DNA of 24,000 nucleotides from contig JBJHBJ010000008.1 of NCBI GenBank assembly GCA_050485425.1, forward strand, positions 30,432-54,431. The letters run 5' to 3'. Under the pieces are notes generated by a model, which was not told the origin of the DNA, ran no database searches, and saw nothing but the letters and a program-made list of their open reading frames with translations. The number at the start of each line of letters is the position of its first letter. Position 1 is the stretch's first letter. The DNA is from Ectothiorhodospiraceae bacterium (GTDB taxonomy: Bacteria > Pseudomonadota > Gammaproteobacteria > Nitrococcales > Aquisalimonadaceae). The position numbers were made by a program, and so were the translations under genes. Shown here piece by piece: positions 5,110-14,789 of this stretch.

Positions 5110-5901
5110 TCAGTCGCGCAGCCGCCCCTCCAGCACGGTAACCGCCCGGCCACCGAGTACGACGCGATCACCGCTGATTTCCATGGCCACCAGACCACCG
5201 CGTCTGGACGCCTGGAAGCCACGCAGACTGGTCCGGCCCAGGCGCTCTGCCCAGTGCGGTGCCAGGCAGCAATGGGCGGAGCCGGTCACCGGGTCCTCGG
5301 GCACCCCCATGGCCGGCGCGAAGAAACGCGAGACGAAATCGTACTCCGGGCCCGCGGCCGGCGCGGTGGCGATGACGCCGCCGACGTCCACCCCGGCCAG
5401 CAGGGCCTGGTCGGGGGCAAGCGCACGCAGTCTGGCTTCGGATTCCAGCACATAGAGAACCTTGTGCCGTCCCCGACCCACCCACGACGGGGCCGCGCCC
5501 ATGGCCTCTTCCAGGCCTGCCGGAAGCGGGATCTCTGCCGGCGGATCGGCGGGGAAATCCATGGCAATCCCGTCGCCTTCACGGCTGGTGGTCAGCAGGC
5601 CGCTGCGGGTATGGAACTGCAGGGTCTCGGCAGTCACGCCGCGCTCGTTCCACAGAACGTGCGCAGAAGCCAGCGTGGCGTGACCGCAGAGATCCACTTC
5701 CACGGTGGGCGTGAACCAGCGCAGATCCCAGTGATTGTCTTCCTGCGGTGCGAGAAAAGCGGTTTCGGAAAGGTTCATTTCCGCGGCGACCTGCTGCATC
5801 CAGGCGGCATCCGCCGAGGATTCCAGCAGACAGACCGCGGCCGGATTGCCGCGAAACGGCGCGTCAGTGAATGCATCGACGATGTACAGCGGCGTGCTCA
5901 T
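5110..5901 (-). CDS. PhzF family isomerase (phenazine biosynthesis-like protein)
   Basis: I set the start at ATG 5901 (MSTPLYIVDAFTDAPFRGNPAAV...), which is the canonical PhzF/YddE N-terminus. The length of about 263 aa fits the family. Confidence 0.85.
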   Translation of the reverse strand: MSTPLYIVDAFTDAPFRGNPAAVCLLESSADAAWMQQVAAEMNLSETAFLAPQEDNHWDLRWFTPTVEVDLCGHATLASAHVLWNERGVTAETLQFHTRSGLLTTSREGDGIAMDFPADPPAEIPLPAGLEEAMGAAPSWVGRGRHKVLYVLESEARLRALAPDQALLAGVDVGGVIATAPAAGPEYDFVSRFFAPAMGVPEDPVTGSAHCCLAPHWAERLGRTSLRGFQASRRGGLVAMEISGDRVVLGGRAVTVLEGRLRD

Positions 5902-5912
5902 GGCATGATTCC

Positions 5913-6398
5913 TTAAAGACTCCCCACAACCACCACCCGCGGCTCGCACTTCACCGGAAAGCAGACGGAATTCGCGATGAAACAGCGGGCATGCGCGCGT
6001 TCGTGCAACGCGTCGGCCAGATCCGGATCGCTGTTTGCGTCCACCGTTACCAGAGGCCGGAGTACAACCTCGGTGAAATGGCCCCCGCCGCCGGCAGTGA
6101 CGGTCATGGAACCGACGGCGTCATCGGAGTAGGCCTGCACGCGAATTCCGGCCTCGCTGGCCAGGTGCAGGTACCAGAGCATGTGACAGGCGGACAGCGA
6201 AGCCACCAGGAGGTCCTCGGGGTTATGCCTGTTGGCGTCGCCCAGGAACGCGGGGTCTGCAGACCCCTTGATCGCCGGCCGGCCTTCGACGATGACGTCG
6301 TAATCCCGGCCGTAGGCCTTGTAATGACTAGTCCCGGAGCCGCGATTCCCAGTCCAGGCAACACGGGTCCGATAGGTGTGTTCAGCGCCCTCGCTCAT
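5913..6398 (-). CDS. OsmC family peroxiredoxin-like protein
   Basis: A 161-aa protein. The two conserved Cys contexts (ASLSACHMLWYL and ERAHARCFIANSV) match the OsmC/Ohr fold. Its stop lies 11 nt upstream of the PhzF start, so co-transcription is likely. Confidence 0.85.
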   Translation of the reverse strand: MSEGAEHTYRTRVAWTGNRGSGTSHYKAYGRDYDVIVEGRPAIKGSADPAFLGDANRHNPEDLLVASLSACHMLWYLHLASEAGIRVQAYSDDAVGSMTVTAGGGGHFTEVVLRPLVTVDANSDPDLADALHERAHARCFIANSVCFPVKCEPRVVVVGSL

Positions 6399-6458
6399 GG
6401 TGTGTCATCCCCTTCTGCCTCGGGCAGTGTATGCTGCATCCCGCACCCGTTTCACCCC

Positions 6459-6487
6459 CTTGAAACCATTCCGGCCGACCCTATTTT
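6459..6487 (+). promoter_or_regulatory. sigma32 (RpoH)-type heat-shock promoter upstream of the Hsp20 operon
   Basis: CCCCCTTGAAA ends at 6465. A 13-nt spacer follows, then CCCTATTTT at 6479-6487. This compares well with the E. coli sigma32 consensus CNCCCTTGAA-N13-17-CCCCATNTA. The site lies about 60 nt upstream of the Hsp20 ATG. Confidence 0.55.
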
Positions 6488-6549
6488 CGCTAATGATCCA
6501 GAGGCAACAGCGGCCGCGAAACGGCCACAATCGTTAGAGGAGGTGCAAC

Positions 6550-7002
6550 ATGTTCAGCCGGTTGTCTCCATTCAACTCACCGTTGTTCAGTGATTTTGAC
6601 CGGTTGTTCCGGTTCATGGACGAAGCCATGAGTGATCTGGGCTTCGACGATATCCGTTCAGCTCCGCGGGGCGCCTTCCCGGCGATCAACGTGGGCGAAA
6701 CCGAAGACACCGTCCACCTGTACGCCTTTGCGCCCGGCGTGGCAAATGATGACATCGAACTCAATGTGGAAGACGGGATGCTGTTCATCCGCGGGCGCCG
6801 TTCGCTGGATGACGAGTCGGCCGAGGGCCGCACCTACTATCGTCGTGAGCGCTTCGGTGGCGAATTCACCCGCGCGGTGCGGCTGCCCGACTACGTCAAC
6901 CCCGAAAATGTAGAGGCCAGCCTGCACAACGGCGTGCTGACGGTGCGCCTGCGCAAGCGCGAGGAATCCCGTCCCCGGAAGATCGAGATCAAGGCCGCTT
7001 AA
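6550..7002 (+). CDS. Hsp20/alpha-crystallin family small heat-shock protein (copy 1)
   Basis: A 150-aa protein preceded by the RBS GAGGAGG at 6537-6543. The alpha-crystallin domain includes GVLTVRLRK and a C-terminal IEIKAA (IxI-like) tail. Confidence 0.9.
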   Translation: MFSRLSPFNSPLFSDFDRLFRFMDEAMSDLGFDDIRSAPRGAFPAINVGETEDTVHLYAFAPGVANDDIELNVEDGMLFIRGRRSLDDESAEGRTYYRRERFGGEFTRAVRLPDYVNPENVEASLHNGVLTVRLRKREESRPRKIEIKAA

Positions 7003-7022
7003 CCGGCCGGGAGGTAACAGCC

Positions 7023-7454
7023 ATGGTCGACAGGAATGAAGATCGCAAGACGTCGATGAGCACCGCCGAGGAGCGGAACCTGGAGCAGCGGCAGCAGGGT
7101 CGGCAGCTTGCCGAAACGGCGCCGCGCGACCTGGTGCCGCCGGTGGAAATCTTCGAGGACGGCGATGCCGTCTACGTCGTGGCGGACATGCCCGGCGTCA
7201 GCCCGGAGAACCTGAACGTGGAAGTGGCCAACCAGATGCTGGAGATCACCGGCAACATCACGGTGGAAATGCCGGACGGCGTCACCGCCACGTTCGCGGA
7301 GATCCGCGGCAGCCGCTACCGCCGCCAGTTCACGCTGGGTCGGGAACTGGACCACGACGGCATCGAGGCCACCATCCGGGCCGGCGTGCTGCAGGTGCGC
7401 CTGCCGAAGGCCGAATCCCGTCGCCGTCGGCGGATCGAGATCAAGGCCGCCTGA
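7023..7454 (+). CDS. Hsp20/alpha-crystallin family small heat-shock protein (copy 2)
   Basis: A 143-aa protein preceded by the RBS GGGAGG. The alpha-crystallin domain includes AGVLQVRLPK and the same C-terminal IEIKAA tail as copy 1. It starts 20 nt downstream of copy 1. Confidence 0.9.
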   Translation: MVDRNEDRKTSMSTAEERNLEQRQQGRQLAETAPRDLVPPVEIFEDGDAVYVVADMPGVSPENLNVEVANQMLEITGNITVEMPDGVTATFAEIRGSRYRRQFTLGRELDHDGIEATIRAGVLQVRLPKAESRRRRRIEIKAA

Positions 7455-7481
7455 GTCCGGCAACGCCGGCCTCCAGTCTCA

Positions 7482-7510
7482 CCCCCCGCCTGCGCGGGGG
7501 GTTGTCTTTT
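7482..7510 (+). terminator. rho-independent terminator of the Hsp20 operon
   Basis: There is a perfect 8-bp GC stem, CCCCCCGC (7482-7489) with GCGGGGGG (7494-7501). The loop is CTGC. TTGTCTTTT follows the stem. Confidence 0.7.
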
Positions 7511-7535
7511 CGGAACGCTTTGCGGACCGCCGGGC

Positions 7536-7767
7536 TTGGTGGATATCGGCTTCGCCTCCATCCACCCTACGCAGCATCGGAACCCGCGTAGGGTGCTCAG
7601 AGCCGGAGGCGATGCGCACCGACCACGCCAATAGTAGGGTGTGCACCACAACGTGGTGCGCACCATTGCCCACCACGGCCCGGTGCGCAGGCCTTGCGGC
7701 CTGGACACCCTACGCGGGTTCTCATCAAGGAATTCTGGTGGATGGAGGCGAAGCCGATATCCACCAA
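7536..7767. repeat. composite REP/MITE-like structured repeat, copy 1, bounded by 31-bp perfect inverted repeats
   Basis: The segment 7536-7566 (TTGGTGGATATCGGCTTCGCCTCCATCCACC) is the exact reverse complement of 7737-7767. The interior has a CCCTACGC-N13-GCGTAGGG hairpin at 7565-7593. It also has a 44-nt unit A at 7586-7629 and a 93-nt unit B at 7634-7726. Both units recur at 14464-14664. Confidence 0.85.
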
Positions 7768-7895
7768 TCCGGCCAACGGCCGAACGTTCGCTTGACCACC
7801 TGGACGGTATCCGCACCTGCAGAAACCGGCAACATCAACTATGCCTACCAGGGAAGCGCTGAAGTATTCACGCTGCCGCGTCAGCAGGCCAGGCC

Positions 7896-8276
7896 ATGGA
7901 CAAAGAAAGCCAGCGCAACGCTGTCGATTCCCTGCGCGAATGGAGCAAATGGCTGATCGGCATCGACTTCGCCGCGGCGACCGGCTGCGTGGTGATCCTG
8001 CAGGGAGGCCCGGAGGGGGCCCCGCGTTTTTTCCTGATCGTGGCCATCGGCGCTTTCGCGCTGTCCGTGCTCTGCGCGGTGCTGCTGGTCCGGGTGCTGG
8101 CGGCCGTGGTCGAGCGGCTGCCACTGACAGGTGACGACGGCAAACCGATCAGCATTTCCGAATACCGCCTGCGTTCGGGCGTTACCATCGAACAGCTCGC
8201 CGGCATCCAGTTCCTGCTTCTGGTACTGGGTGCGCTGTTCTTTCTGGCCTGGGTAGTCCTGAGGCCGCCGCTGTGA
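7896..8276 (+). CDS. hypothetical small membrane protein (about 3 TM segments)
   Basis: A 126-aa ORF with GC3-rich codon usage and hydrophobic segments (WLIGIDFAAATGCVVIL, FFLIVAIGAFALSVLCAVLLV, FLLLVLGALFFLAWVVL). The RBS is weak and I recognise no family. Confidence 0.5.
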   Translation: MDKESQRNAVDSLREWSKWLIGIDFAAATGCVVILQGGPEGAPRFFLIVAIGAFALSVLCAVLLVRVLAAVVERLPLTGDDGKPISISEYRLRSGVTIEQLAGIQFLLLVLGALFFLAWVVLRPPL

Positions 8277-8326
8277 GAGGTCGGGCGAACCCGGGCCTCG
8301 TCGCCAGCGGCGACCTCGCCGGGGCA

Positions 8327-9214
8327 TCAGGCCGCCCGGTACATCCTCCCCAGCTCCTGCGCAAAGTCCTCGAACCGATACGCCGTCGTGTTCTGCGCTG
8401 TCCGCCCTGCTGCGGGCCGGATGGTGCCCTTGCTGAAGCCCTGCGTCATTTCGTGGTACAGGCGGGCGAAGCTCTGAGACAGGCCGGCCTCCACCATCGC
8501 CTGCTCCAGCTCGGCGTACGGTAGCTGGACGTAGGCGAGATCCGGCTTGCCGATGCACGCGCCCAGAATGCGGGCTGCCTCGCGATAGCTGAGATCCCGC
8601 GGTCCCAGCAACTCACGGATGACCTCGCCCTGCCAGTCGCGCCGGGCCAGCGCCTCGGTCGCGGCCGCGGCGATATCCCGGGTACCGACCATGGGGATGG
8701 CCAGATCCGCTTCCACGCAATCGGCCAGCACGCCGTGATGGCGGATGGTTTCCAGCGCTTCGAGGAAATTCTCGAAGAACGAGGCCGGTCGGAGCAGGCA
8801 CAGGTTCACGCCCGGAATCCGGCGCAGCCGCTGCTCCTGGGCATGCAGGCCGAGAATGACCCCGGTGCCGTCATCCAGATCGGCGCCGATGCTGCTGAGC
8901 GCCACCACGCAAGGCACGCCGCTGGCGCGAATGGCTTGCGCGATAGCCTCGCCTTCCTGCATCTGCCTGGCACGGTAATCCGGCGCTCGCGGATCCGTGG
9001 GCAACAGCGTATAGACCGCATCGGCGCCCCGAAATGCCTCGGTAAGGAAGGCCGCGTCCGCCGCATCCCCCACCCGGATATCAGCCCCAAGCCCGGTCAG
9101 CGCCTGCAGCCGGTCTTCCGACCGGCCCAGTGCCCGCACCTGCTCGCCGCGCCGGAGCAAGGCGCTGGCGATCTTCGATCCGGTGTTCCCCGTCGCTCCC
9201 ATGATGGTAATCAT
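8327..9214 (-). CDS. NmrA-family / SDR-like NAD(P)-binding protein
   Basis: I trimmed the start to ATG 9214, which has GGAGG upstream. The N-terminus MITIMGATGNTGSKIA is the Rossmann GxxGxxG motif typical of NmrA/atypical SDRs. Confidence 0.8.
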   Translation of the reverse strand: MITIMGATGNTGSKIASALLRRGEQVRALGRSEDRLQALTGLGADIRVGDAADAAFLTEAFRGADAVYTLLPTDPRAPDYRARQMQEGEAIAQAIRASGVPCVVALSSIGADLDDGTGVILGLHAQEQRLRRIPGVNLCLLRPASFFENFLEALETIRHHGVLADCVEADLAIPMVGTRDIAAAATEALARRDWQGEVIRELLGPRDLSYREAARILGACIGKPDLAYVQLPYAELEQAMVEAGLSQSFARLYHEMTQGFSKGTIRPAAGRTAQNTTAYRFEDFAQELGRMYRAA

Positions 9215-9283
9215 GTGTACCTCCAGATGTGACTTGCGATGTGAAGCAGAGCATCCAGAATGGAGGAACACATCAGGACTATC

Positions 9284-9320
9284 CATGCCTGTTAATCTTC
9301 ATATCATGCTCATTAATCCA
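9284..9320. promoter_or_regulatory. candidate AraC-type operator: two direct-repeat half sites 21 bp apart in the NmrA/AraC divergent region
   Basis: CATGCCTGTTAATCTT (9284-9299) and CATGCTCATTAATCCA (9305-9320) share 11 of 16 positions, including the CATGC and TTAATC cores. Their phase is exactly 21 bp. They sit in a visibly AT-enriched intergenic region. Confidence 0.3.
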
Positions 9321-13155: not shown

Positions 13156-13704
13156 ATGGGGACGCATTTCTCTGTCTTCGATACGGCAATGGGCCGTTGC
13201 GGCATCGTCTGGCAGGAGCGGCAGATCCGGGGGACCTACCTGCCGGAACGGAACGAGTCCGCGCTGCGCGACCGCATCCGGGAGGAACACCCGGGCGTCG
13301 AGGAAAGCGCGCCATCCGCGACGATCCGGTCCATCGTCGACGCCATCGTGCGCCTGATGGACGGCGAGGCGGTCGATCTGTCCGGCGCCGGGCTGGATAT
13401 GGCCGGTATCTCCACCTTTCACCGCCGGGTCTACGAACTGGCGCGCACCATCCCTCCCGGCCAGACCCTGACCTACGGCGACATCGCCAGGCTGCTGGAT
13501 GCCCCCGGTTCGGCCCGCGCCGTGGGCCAGGCGCTGGGCCGAAACCCGTTCCCCATCATCGTCCCCTGCCACCGCGTGCTGGCGGCCGGAGGCCGGTCCG
13601 GCGGCTTTTCCGCCGAGGGCGGCGTGAGGACCAAGCTGCGCATGCTCGCCATTGAGCAGGGAGCGTGGGTTCCCGGGCTTGCCGGCGATACAGCCAGGCC
13701 ATGA
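13156..13704 (+). CDS. ogt: methylated-DNA--protein-cysteine S-methyltransferase (Ogt/MGMT family)
   Basis: I trimmed the start to ATG 13156, with GAGGAGG at 13143-13149. The active-site motif is IIVPCHRVL (PCHR). Confidence 0.85.
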   Translation: MGTHFSVFDTAMGRCGIVWQERQIRGTYLPERNESALRDRIREEHPGVEESAPSATIRSIVDAIVRLMDGEAVDLSGAGLDMAGISTFHRRVYELARTIPPGQTLTYGDIARLLDAPGSARAVGQALGRNPFPIIVPCHRVLAAGGRSGGFSAEGGVRTKLRMLAIEQGAWVPGLAGDTARP

Positions 13705-14366
13705 AGAGCATCGCGGCGCCACACCACCCCTACGAATTCGACGTACCCGCCGCACTGGAGCACCTGCGTGCCAGGGATCCGGTACTGGCCGGGGTGATGG
13801 ACCGGGTCGGCCCGTTCGCGCTACGGATCAGCGATACACCCACGCCCTTTGGGATGTTGTCGCAGGCGCTGGTCTACCAGCAGCTTTCCATCAAGGCTGC
13901 CGGCACCATCTTCGGGCGTTTCCGTGCGCTGTTCGGGCCTGATGTCCGCTGGCCGACACCCCGCCAGGTACTCGGCGTGGACCTTGAGACCCTGCGCGGT
14001 GCCGGCCTGTCCATGGCCAAGGCCAGAGCGGTCACGGATCTGGCCGAAAAAACCGAGCAGGGCATCATTCCTCCGTTGAAATCGCTCCGGGAAATGCGCG
14101 ACGAAGAGGTGATCCGGTGTCTGGTGCAGGTGCGCGGCATCGGTCGGTGGACGGCCGAGATGTTCCTGATTTTCGCGCTCGGCCGGCCGAACGTGCTGCC
14201 GATGGACGACCTGGGCATGCGCAGGAGCTTCCAGTTGGCCTATGGGCTGAAGCAGCTTCCGGAGCAGCGGCGCCTTGAAAGGCAGGCCAAGCGCTGGAGG
14301 CCCTATTGCACCGTGGCAACCTGGTACCTTTGGGAGGCGCTGGAGGTTACCCCCGACAAGGGTTGA
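13701..14366 (+). CDS. DNA-3-methyladenine glycosylase II family protein (HhH-GPD, AlkA-like, short form)
   Basis: I trimmed the start to ATG 13701, which forms an ATGA overlap with the ogt stop. The HhH motif is VRGIGRWTAEMFLIFALGRPNVLPMDDLGMRR, with the catalytic Asp region. Confidence 0.85.
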   Translation: MKSIAAPHHPYEFDVPAALEHLRARDPVLAGVMDRVGPFALRISDTPTPFGMLSQALVYQQLSIKAAGTIFGRFRALFGPDVRWPTPRQVLGVDLETLRGAGLSMAKARAVTDLAEKTEQGIIPPLKSLREMRDEEVIRCLVQVRGIGRWTAEMFLIFALGRPNVLPMDDLGMRRSFQLAYGLKQLPEQRRLERQAKRWRPYCTVATWYLWEALEVTPDKG

Positions 14367-14418
14367 TCGGGCTGCGCCGGAAAACCCGGGAAAGTCTCCG
14401 GCCGCCCGCCGGATCGAT

Positions 14419-14698
14419 GGCAATCGCCTGCGGCGATTACCTCCCTACGCCGGTTCCGCTCAAGCGTAGGGTGCTCAGAGCCGGAGGCGATGCGCACCGA
14501 TCACGCCCATGGTGCGCATCGCTGCGCTCTGAGCACCCTACGATCTGCCCGTGTCCGGGCTGTCAGCAGGCGTAGGGTGTGCACCACAACGTGGTGCGCA
14601 CCATTCCCAGGCTCGGGTCGGTGCGCAGGCCTTGCGGCCTGTACACCCTACGCGGGTCCTCATCGATGGTATCCGGTGGATGCCGCCGCGCTCCATCC
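14419..14698. repeat. composite REP-like structured repeat, copy 2 (longer version)
   Basis: The element opens with a 10-bp hairpin at 14419-14441. A CCCTACGC-N13-GCGTAGGG hairpin follows at 14443-14471. Unit A is a complete 76-nt hairpin at 14466-14541, with 16-bp outer and 12-bp inner stems. Unit B lies at 14572-14664. By hand alignment, unit A matches copy 1 at 43 of 44 positions and unit B at 84 of 93. A degenerate GGTGGAT...CTCCATCC motif lies at 14675-14698. Confidence 0.85.
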
Positions 14699-14789
14699 CT
14701 GGCAAGCAGCGCACGGGTGAAATGTGTCGACGAATGGGCCTATAGTGACAGCTACACACAGGAACCCAACCGGCACAAGGAGTCTGCCC

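Follow-up and report, generated by a model that had tools for sequence, protein, structure and literature searches.

The window (the whole stretch of DNA that was analysed, 24,000 nt) carries two Hsp20 genes ending at position 7454 and, further along, an Ogt-type gene (PF01035) with an HhH-GPD (AlkA-like) gene ending at 14366. The initial annotation had described a multi-hairpin repeat in two copies, one downstream of the Hsp20 pair and one downstream of the Ogt-AlkA-like pair, and a re-reading of the window sequence found both copies to be real, at the positions and in the gene context described. Recomputed alignments gave the same identities, 43 of 44 positions for its unit A (7586-7629 against 14464-14507) and 84 of 93 for its unit B (7634-7726 against 14572-14664), with seven of the nine unit B differences falling inside 7668-7680, between the complementary arms GCGCACC (7658-7664) and GGTGCGC (7682-7688). 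The 29-nt hairpin (CCCTACGC-N13-GCGTAGGG) was present at 7565-7593 and 14443-14471. The extra sequence of copy 2 does complete a 76-nt hairpin at 14466-14541, but it is about 64 nt long (14508-14571) and not 60 nt (14511-14571) as first given. A repeat finder also recovered the direct repeats of copies 1 and 2, of which repeat D1 reaches 14682, together with a 34-nt inverted repeat (7533-7566 and 7737-7770, 97% complementary) that forms the edges of copy 1.

Each copy is a mosaic of short GTAGGG-headed hairpin modules and not a single element (Table 1). Copy 1 (7529-7774) has the order R5< R1> R2> R6< R5>, and copy 2 (14396-14651) the order R4< R1> R1< R2> R6<, followed by a degenerate R5-like remnant. 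In unit B, R2 and R6 are thus paired as an inverted doublet, each consisting of GTAG and a 12-bp stem in which a T.G pair is conserved; unit A is R1, present as a full R1/R1 doublet in copy 2; and the 29-nt hairpin is formed where two GTAG ends facing inward join. The apparent terminal inverted repeat (TIR) of copy 1 is made up of two R5 units, the right one without its GTAG. With R1 and part of the doublet loop kept and the second arm missing, copy 1 may plausibly be a deletion derivative, as had been proposed.

Table 1. Modules and linkers of the two repeat copies and the terminator preceding copy 1, in window positions.
Feature	Position	Strand	Remarks
Intrinsic terminator of hsp20 pair	7481-7511	+	9-bp GC stem (7481-7502) and T run; upstream of copy 1, outside the repeat
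R5 unit, left "TIR" arm	7529-7570	-	GTAGGG head at 7565-7570 on the minus strand
17-nt spacer between inward-facing GTAG ends	7571-7587		with the ends, makes up the "29-nt hairpin"
R1 unit, CGGAGGC-containing variant	7588-7620	+	single here; doublet-loop remnant 7621-7633 after it
Unit B of copy 1, REPIN-like doublet	7634-7713	+	R2> 7634-7664, 17-nt variable spacer, R6< 7682-7713
Linker GCGGGTTCTCATC..., R6< to R5>	7714-7732		also at C10:72010, C2:39290, C81:7217, C8:59950 and in window copy 2
R5 unit, right "TIR" arm	7733-7774	+	GTAG head mutated to TTCT
R4 unit	14396-14448	-	main hairpin and small CCGGCC tail hairpin; head CCCTAC at 14443-14448; type flanks RAYT-2
17-nt linker GCCGGTTCCGCTCAAGC, R4< to R1>	14449-14465		conserved; in at least five other clusters
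Full unit A, inverted R1 doublet	14466-14541	+	R1> 14466-14498, loop, R1< 14511-14541; 76-nt hairpin
Unit B of copy 2	14572-14651	+	R2> 14572-14602, spacer, R6< 14620-14651
Linker GCGGGTCCTCATC... and degenerate R5-like remnant (GGTGGATG..CTCCATCC)	14652-14700		by eye against the R5 consensus

All GTAGGG sites in the genome (G000, a draft MAG of 4.53 Mb in 110 contigs with 64.7% GC) were sorted by the bases that follow them, which defined six families: R1 (GTAGGGTGCTCAGAGC..GATGCGCACC), R2 (GTAGGGTGTGCACCAC-AACG-GTGGTGCGCACC), R3 (GTAGGGGAGTAACCGC-GCAG-CGGTTGCTACC with a small second hairpin), R4 (GTAGGGGGGTAATCGCC-GCA-GGCGATTGCCACC, also with a small second hairpin), R5 (GTAGGGTGGATGGAGGCGAAGCCGATATCCACC) and R6 (GTAGGGTGTGCAGGCC-GCAA-GGCCTGCGCACC). 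The six consensus sequences all begin with GTAGGG, and after this head comes an imperfect hairpin of 25-45 nt. Further copies are indeed plentiful in the genome: the census of the six types reached approximately 310 units in 146 clusters, with GTAG intact in 262 of the 310. These copy numbers are lower bounds because the genome is a 110-contig MAG. R5 accounts for 31 units, 10 of them lone, and the R1 head GTAGGGTGCTCAGAGC is the most abundant 16-mer of the genome with 82 copies.

The modules recur in fixed combinations. The commonest doublets were R1>/R1< and R3</R4>, R1>R1< being the second most common architecture, and the R2>/R6< doublet was found with a spacer of 17-19 nt at no fewer than 16 loci. 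The linker GCGGGTTCTCATC between R6< and R5> recurs in at least five loci, both window copies among them, clusters with the linker GCCGGTTCCGCTCAAGC contain blocks of approximately 130 nt that are 92-96% identical to copy 2, and the block R5<-spacer-R1> of copy 1 is also present on contigs C67 (96% over 94 nt) and C70. In several clusters the R1 doublet is placed between R3< and R4>, a pair otherwise adjacent. BLAST searches of the genome returned tens of matches for each part of the composites separately and no second full-length copy of either composite, the sole full-length match of copy 1 being copy 1 itself. The composite shared by the two copies is far beyond chance, its modules each occurring 20-125 times in the genome, and reversed-pattern controls for the R2/R6 scaffold and the R1 16-mer gave 0 matches. 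Overall, the units combine an imperfect palindrome and an unpaired GTAG with the copy number and extragenic location of repetitive extragenic palindromes (REPs), the inverted doublet recurs as a unit as in REPINs, and the clusters join different REP types in alternating orientation through conserved linkers as in bacterial interspersed mosaic elements (BIMEs).

Other repeats were also encountered in the genome. A seventh type, R7 (GTAGGTTGGGGTGAGC..AACCCCAAC), had approximately 47 head matches. Additional GTAG-headed motifs (e.g., at C107:2184-2454 and C51:32064-32486) comprised GTAGGTTGGCGGT with 16 copies, GTAGGCTTGTCGG/A with 25 and GTAGATACCGTCT with 10, the last mostly adjoining R1 doublets as the fixed linker GTAGATACCGTCTTGTTGGTCAAG. 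Among the most abundant 16-mers were also those of a CRISPR array on contig C32 (approximately 5150-8600), with about 47 copies of a 37-nt repeat (GCTTCAATGAGGCCGAGGCATTTCGCCTCGGATTAC) at a 73-nt period.

The proposal that structure is under constraint, originally drawn from the two window copies, held across the many copies of the genome, in which variation spares the stems. The 12-bp stems of R2 and R6, which enclose 4-nt loops, were 95.6-98.9% paired across copies and the stems of R3 91.9%, and the non-consensus rate in R2 was 0.176 in loops compared to 0.018 in stems, an approximately tenfold difference. Because the copies of a type are very similar, classical covariation is sparse within any single type; compensatory variants were observed in R3, R4, R5 and R6. 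R2 and R6 share a common scaffold (GTAGGGTGTGCA-N11-12-TGCGCACC) in which the outer stem is fixed and four inner pairs are variable (CCAC/GTGG, GGCC/GGCC, AGCC/GGCT, CCGC/GCGG, GCGC/GCGC and others). All four variable inner positions pair in 46 of 48 scaffold copies, and 10 of the 12 distinct inner stems are fully paired, whereas 1000 shuffles averaged 3.4 and never exceeded 7. R2, R3, R4 and R6 all keep a T.G pair in the 5' arm, which gives the GTAG strand a better hairpin than the complementary strand. Stem irregularities and GTAG are among the features known to be recognized by TnpAREP (PMC8266576).

Three genes for REP-associated tyrosine transposases (RAYTs), HUH/Y1 enzymes of the TnpAREP type, were identified in the genome, flanked by the same modules that make up the window copies. 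They scored 207.1, 180.8 and 185.7 bits against NCBIfam NF047646, for which the cut-off is 80. RAYT-1 (C49) matches the E. coli TnpAREP structure PDB 4ER8 (E = 2.2e-44), and its aligned residues HIH, VDY, N and H are the equivalents of the H-u-H motif, Y115, N119 and H123; in RAYT-2 (C83) the aligned residues are HLH, MDY, N and H. In TnpAREP, H59 and H61 are the HUH histidines, Y115 is the catalytic tyrosine, and N119 and H123 are two further metal ligands (PMC3479197). As the three RAYTs are only 50-56% identical to one another, they are distinct genes and not IS-like duplicates. RAYT-3 (C51:125-613) is without the N-terminal segment, with a stop codon before the conserved core and close to the contig start, and R7 lies after the gene.

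An inverted R1 pair lies immediately 5' of RAYT-1, where the R1 head is found, and an R2-like/R6 doublet directly 3' of it, while RAYT-2 has R4</R3> on both sides. The 16-mers flanking the RAYTs occur 82, 34/32 and 12 times genome-wide; a flanking 16-mer that is the most abundant of its genome is the criterion used by Bertels et al. for REP-associated RAYTs (PMC5581495). No RAYT flanked by R5 was found in this assembly, and in the congener G003 a RAYT with 67% identity to RAYT-1 has R5 on both sides. The RAYT-1 homologue of a second congener, G001, is syntenic, lying downstream of the same uvrA-like gene. A complex predicted for RAYT-1 and the R2 strand reached a score of 0.49 and could not be told apart from shuffled controls, the best of which reached 0.44.

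The placement of the units relative to genes was assessed with crude gene calls, for which long ORFs rich in GC at third codon positions were taken and which covered 79% of the genome and left 21% uncovered. The units are extragenic and favour the 3' ends of genes: 281 of the 310 (91%) lie wholly outside called genes, and of the 129 clusters with genes on both sides 44 (34%) are in convergent spacers, an enrichment over the 15.6% background, and eight (6%) in divergent spacers, for which the background is also 15.6%. In co-directional spacers, the cluster was closer to the upstream stop codon than to the downstream start in 52 of 77. A REP lies within 200 nt of a contig end in 11 contigs, and the REP types explain the fragmentation of the assembly into 110 contigs.

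This preference for gene ends would also be expected if the clusters were kept mainly for a role at the RNA level, as 3'-UTR hairpins that block 3'-5' exonucleases or terminate transcription, a role that is compatible with a REP/RAYT origin and has likewise been suggested for GTAG REPs (PMC3733652). The conserved T.G pairs on the GTAG strand would be stable as G.U in RNA, and copy 2 follows the stop codon of the alkA-like gene, where no intrinsic terminator was predicted. Lone REPs, however, were not significantly biased towards either strand of the upstream gene, with 21 in sense and 15 in antisense orientation (P = 0.4), and copy 1 comes after the strong intrinsic terminator of the hsp20 pair, which makes copy 1 unlikely to form the 3' end of the hsp20 mRNA. 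The earlier idea of an mRNA 3' stabiliser is weakened for copy 1. We regard RNA-level retention as improbable as the main explanation of the clusters, and as possible for copy 2, judging from its sequence context.

The initial annotation had also raised the options of MITEs and of a structured RNA family, and neither was supported. A classical MITE would be an internally deleted IS with TIRs that is moved by a DDE transposase, and the 34-nt inverted repeat bounding copy 1 has that appearance. Each of its arms, however, is an R5 REP, a unit that exists independently elsewhere in the genome, in 10 of 31 cases alone, and that flanks a RAYT in G003; the right arm has no GTAG head; the bases outside (cggaccgccg and ggccaacggc) are not a direct repeat, with no target-site duplication seen; the inner modules also occur with other outer modules, such as R4 in copy 2; and the genome holds no second complete copy of the 238 nt. 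The MITE reading of copy 1 was rejected as very improbable. Genes for a structured small RNA family would account for the long stable hairpins, which reach approximately -180 kcal/mol as RNA on either strand. Against this, neither strand folds better than the other, the modules are found in both orientations and in numerous combinations with no strand bias relative to transcription, and no promoter-like site was found ahead of either copy; one such site, at 14717-14746, lies downstream of copy 2. Rfam 15 gave 0 matches at the gathering score for both regions, and a relaxed search returned weak, sub-threshold matches to eukaryotic miRNA hairpin models. A small RNA family is thus extremely unlikely.

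The range of the REP types was searched in 31 genomes, consisting of G000 and 30 relatives. The R2/R6 scaffold had 48 occurrences in G000, 25 in G001 and a single one in G003, and was not found in the other 28 of the 31 genomes. The R1 16-mer, with its 82 copies in G000, had 11 in G001 and was found nowhere else among the 31 genomes, with 0 in G003. The REP types were therefore confined to this genus among the genomes searched. Homologues of the RAYTs, for their part, are widespread; relatives at 50-62% identity occurred across many phyla in one scan of a genome collection from which the window's own record had been left out. Widespread RAYTs with lineage-specific REPs would fit old enzymes acting alongside fast-evolving REPs.

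Both clusters are missing from the orthologous sites of G001. At the first site the neighbouring small membrane-protein gene is also missing and a terminator equivalent to that of the hsp20 pair is present; at the second a different gene occupies the place of alkA. Because these sites differ by larger indels, they provide no clean empty site or insertion boundary that would define the mobile unit. Public DNA contigs from four runs, examined over 6400-9300, broke at the cluster and are uninformative on polymorphism; their only usable signal was a depth spike of approximately 35-fold, and the apparent "joints" in these contigs at copy 1 derive from paralogous clusters elsewhere in the genome. 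The best-matching public run, a mine-tailings metagenome, may be the source of this genome.

The sequences around the two clusters displayed some further differences. In G001 the counterpart of 13665-14366 (L018) has the alkA-like gene after ogt replaced by a stretch encoding a different small hydrophobic ORF, indicating that the ogt-alkA pairing is not shared throughout the genus. A hydrophobic protein of 126 aa is encoded by an ORF (7896-8276, plus strand) that lies after copy 1 and before the convergent NmrA-like gene of the window; the orthologous spacer of G001 lacks this ORF, and the DNA of the ORF has an approximately 71% match in G022 and G028, which belong to another family of the same order. 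Just upstream of this small membrane-protein gene, at 7848-7882, is a different and unexplained repeat (CCAGGGAAGCGCTGAAGTATTCACGCTGCCGCG) with approximately 12 copies in the genome, which in G005, from another genus of the family, occurs at 90-97% identity and often as inverted pairs approximately 240 nt apart.

Taken together, the two window copies are very probably BIME-like mosaic clusters of GTAG-tagged REP/REPIN elements, the non-autonomous partners of three RAYTs. This supports the first option of the initial annotation, REP/BIME-like RAYT substrates. Cleavage and mobilisation by the RAYTs, and any effect of the REPs on mRNA, we infer by analogy with characterised systems. As judged from the E. 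coli and Stenotrophomonas enzymes, the GTAG-bearing strand of single-stranded DNA would fold into a hairpin, the RAYT would bind hairpin and GTAG together, and its catalytic tyrosine would cut at a nearby dinucleotide. By joining strands, the RAYT could then disperse and reshuffle both REPs and doublets among extragenic spacers, for the most part at the 3' ends of genes. In a REPIN, as the term is defined, what replicates is the doublet and not the lone REP. It is rather unlikely, if conceivable, that the spreading unit here is a larger composite with fixed linkers, such as R4<-linker-R1>R1< or R2>R6<-linker-R5>. Mosaics with fixed linkers correspond to the BIMEs of E. coli and the hybrid dimers of Stenotrophomonas (PMC8266576, PMC3733652). 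Because these larger composites combine REPs of different RAYTs, a RAYT would take along, or cross-mobilise, REPs that are substrates of another RAYT, and R5, which has no RAYT of its own in this genome, could survive in that way. The window thus adds an uncultured GC-rich lineage to those with a known kind of bacterial repeat, its REP types are lineage-specific markers for the genus, and six REP types with three RAYTs make up a compact natural set for asking how a RAYT tells its own REP under the common GTAGGG head.

The closest known counterparts are the GTAG REPs and their dimers (Di Nocera et al., 2013; PMC3733652), especially the long-stem GTAG-24 of Pseudomonas and Azotobacter. Both have a 5' GTAG and an imperfect palindrome with G.T pairs in the stem, several families per genome, dimers whose GTAG ends point outward or inward, hybrid dimers, and an extragenic location mostly between convergent or co-directional genes. 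By comparison of descriptions and not of consensus sequences, they differ in that the stems described here are genus-specific, being absent from 27 genomes of neighbouring genera, and in that the longer head GTAGGG is common to all six types. The SMAG repeats of Stenotrophomonas maltophilia (PMC3733652) are similar in coming from a GC-rich genome with several GTAG families and hybrid dimers, a likeness drawn from the literature description only, whereas their sequences and lineage differ.

The BIMEs of E. coli, built from y, z1 and z2 REPs and associated with TnpAREP (PMC3479197, PMC8266576), likewise alternate REP orientation with conserved linkers and have imperfect stems, and RAYT-1 is a clear homologue of TnpAREP (PDB 4ER8; E = 2e-44) with the catalytic residues kept. 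E. coli, however, has three REP types and one RAYT compared to at least six types and three RAYTs here, and its stem irregularity is an AA/GC bulge where here it is a single T.G pair. BIMEs are known to bind IHF or gyrase, and Pol I binding counts as a further mark of the class. Finally, the REPIN-RAYT system of Pseudomonas fluorescens (Bertels and Rainey, 2011, PMC3116915; Bertels et al., 2017, PMC5581495) shares with the present one inverted doublets with a short spacer, doublets flanking single-copy, vertically inherited RAYTs with flanking 16-mers that are the most abundant in the genome, and common lone REPs that are likely decayed doublets. In contrast to the P. fluorescens REPINs, the doublets described here often consist of two different types (R2 with R6, R3 with R4) and are nested in larger mosaics with units of another RAYT.
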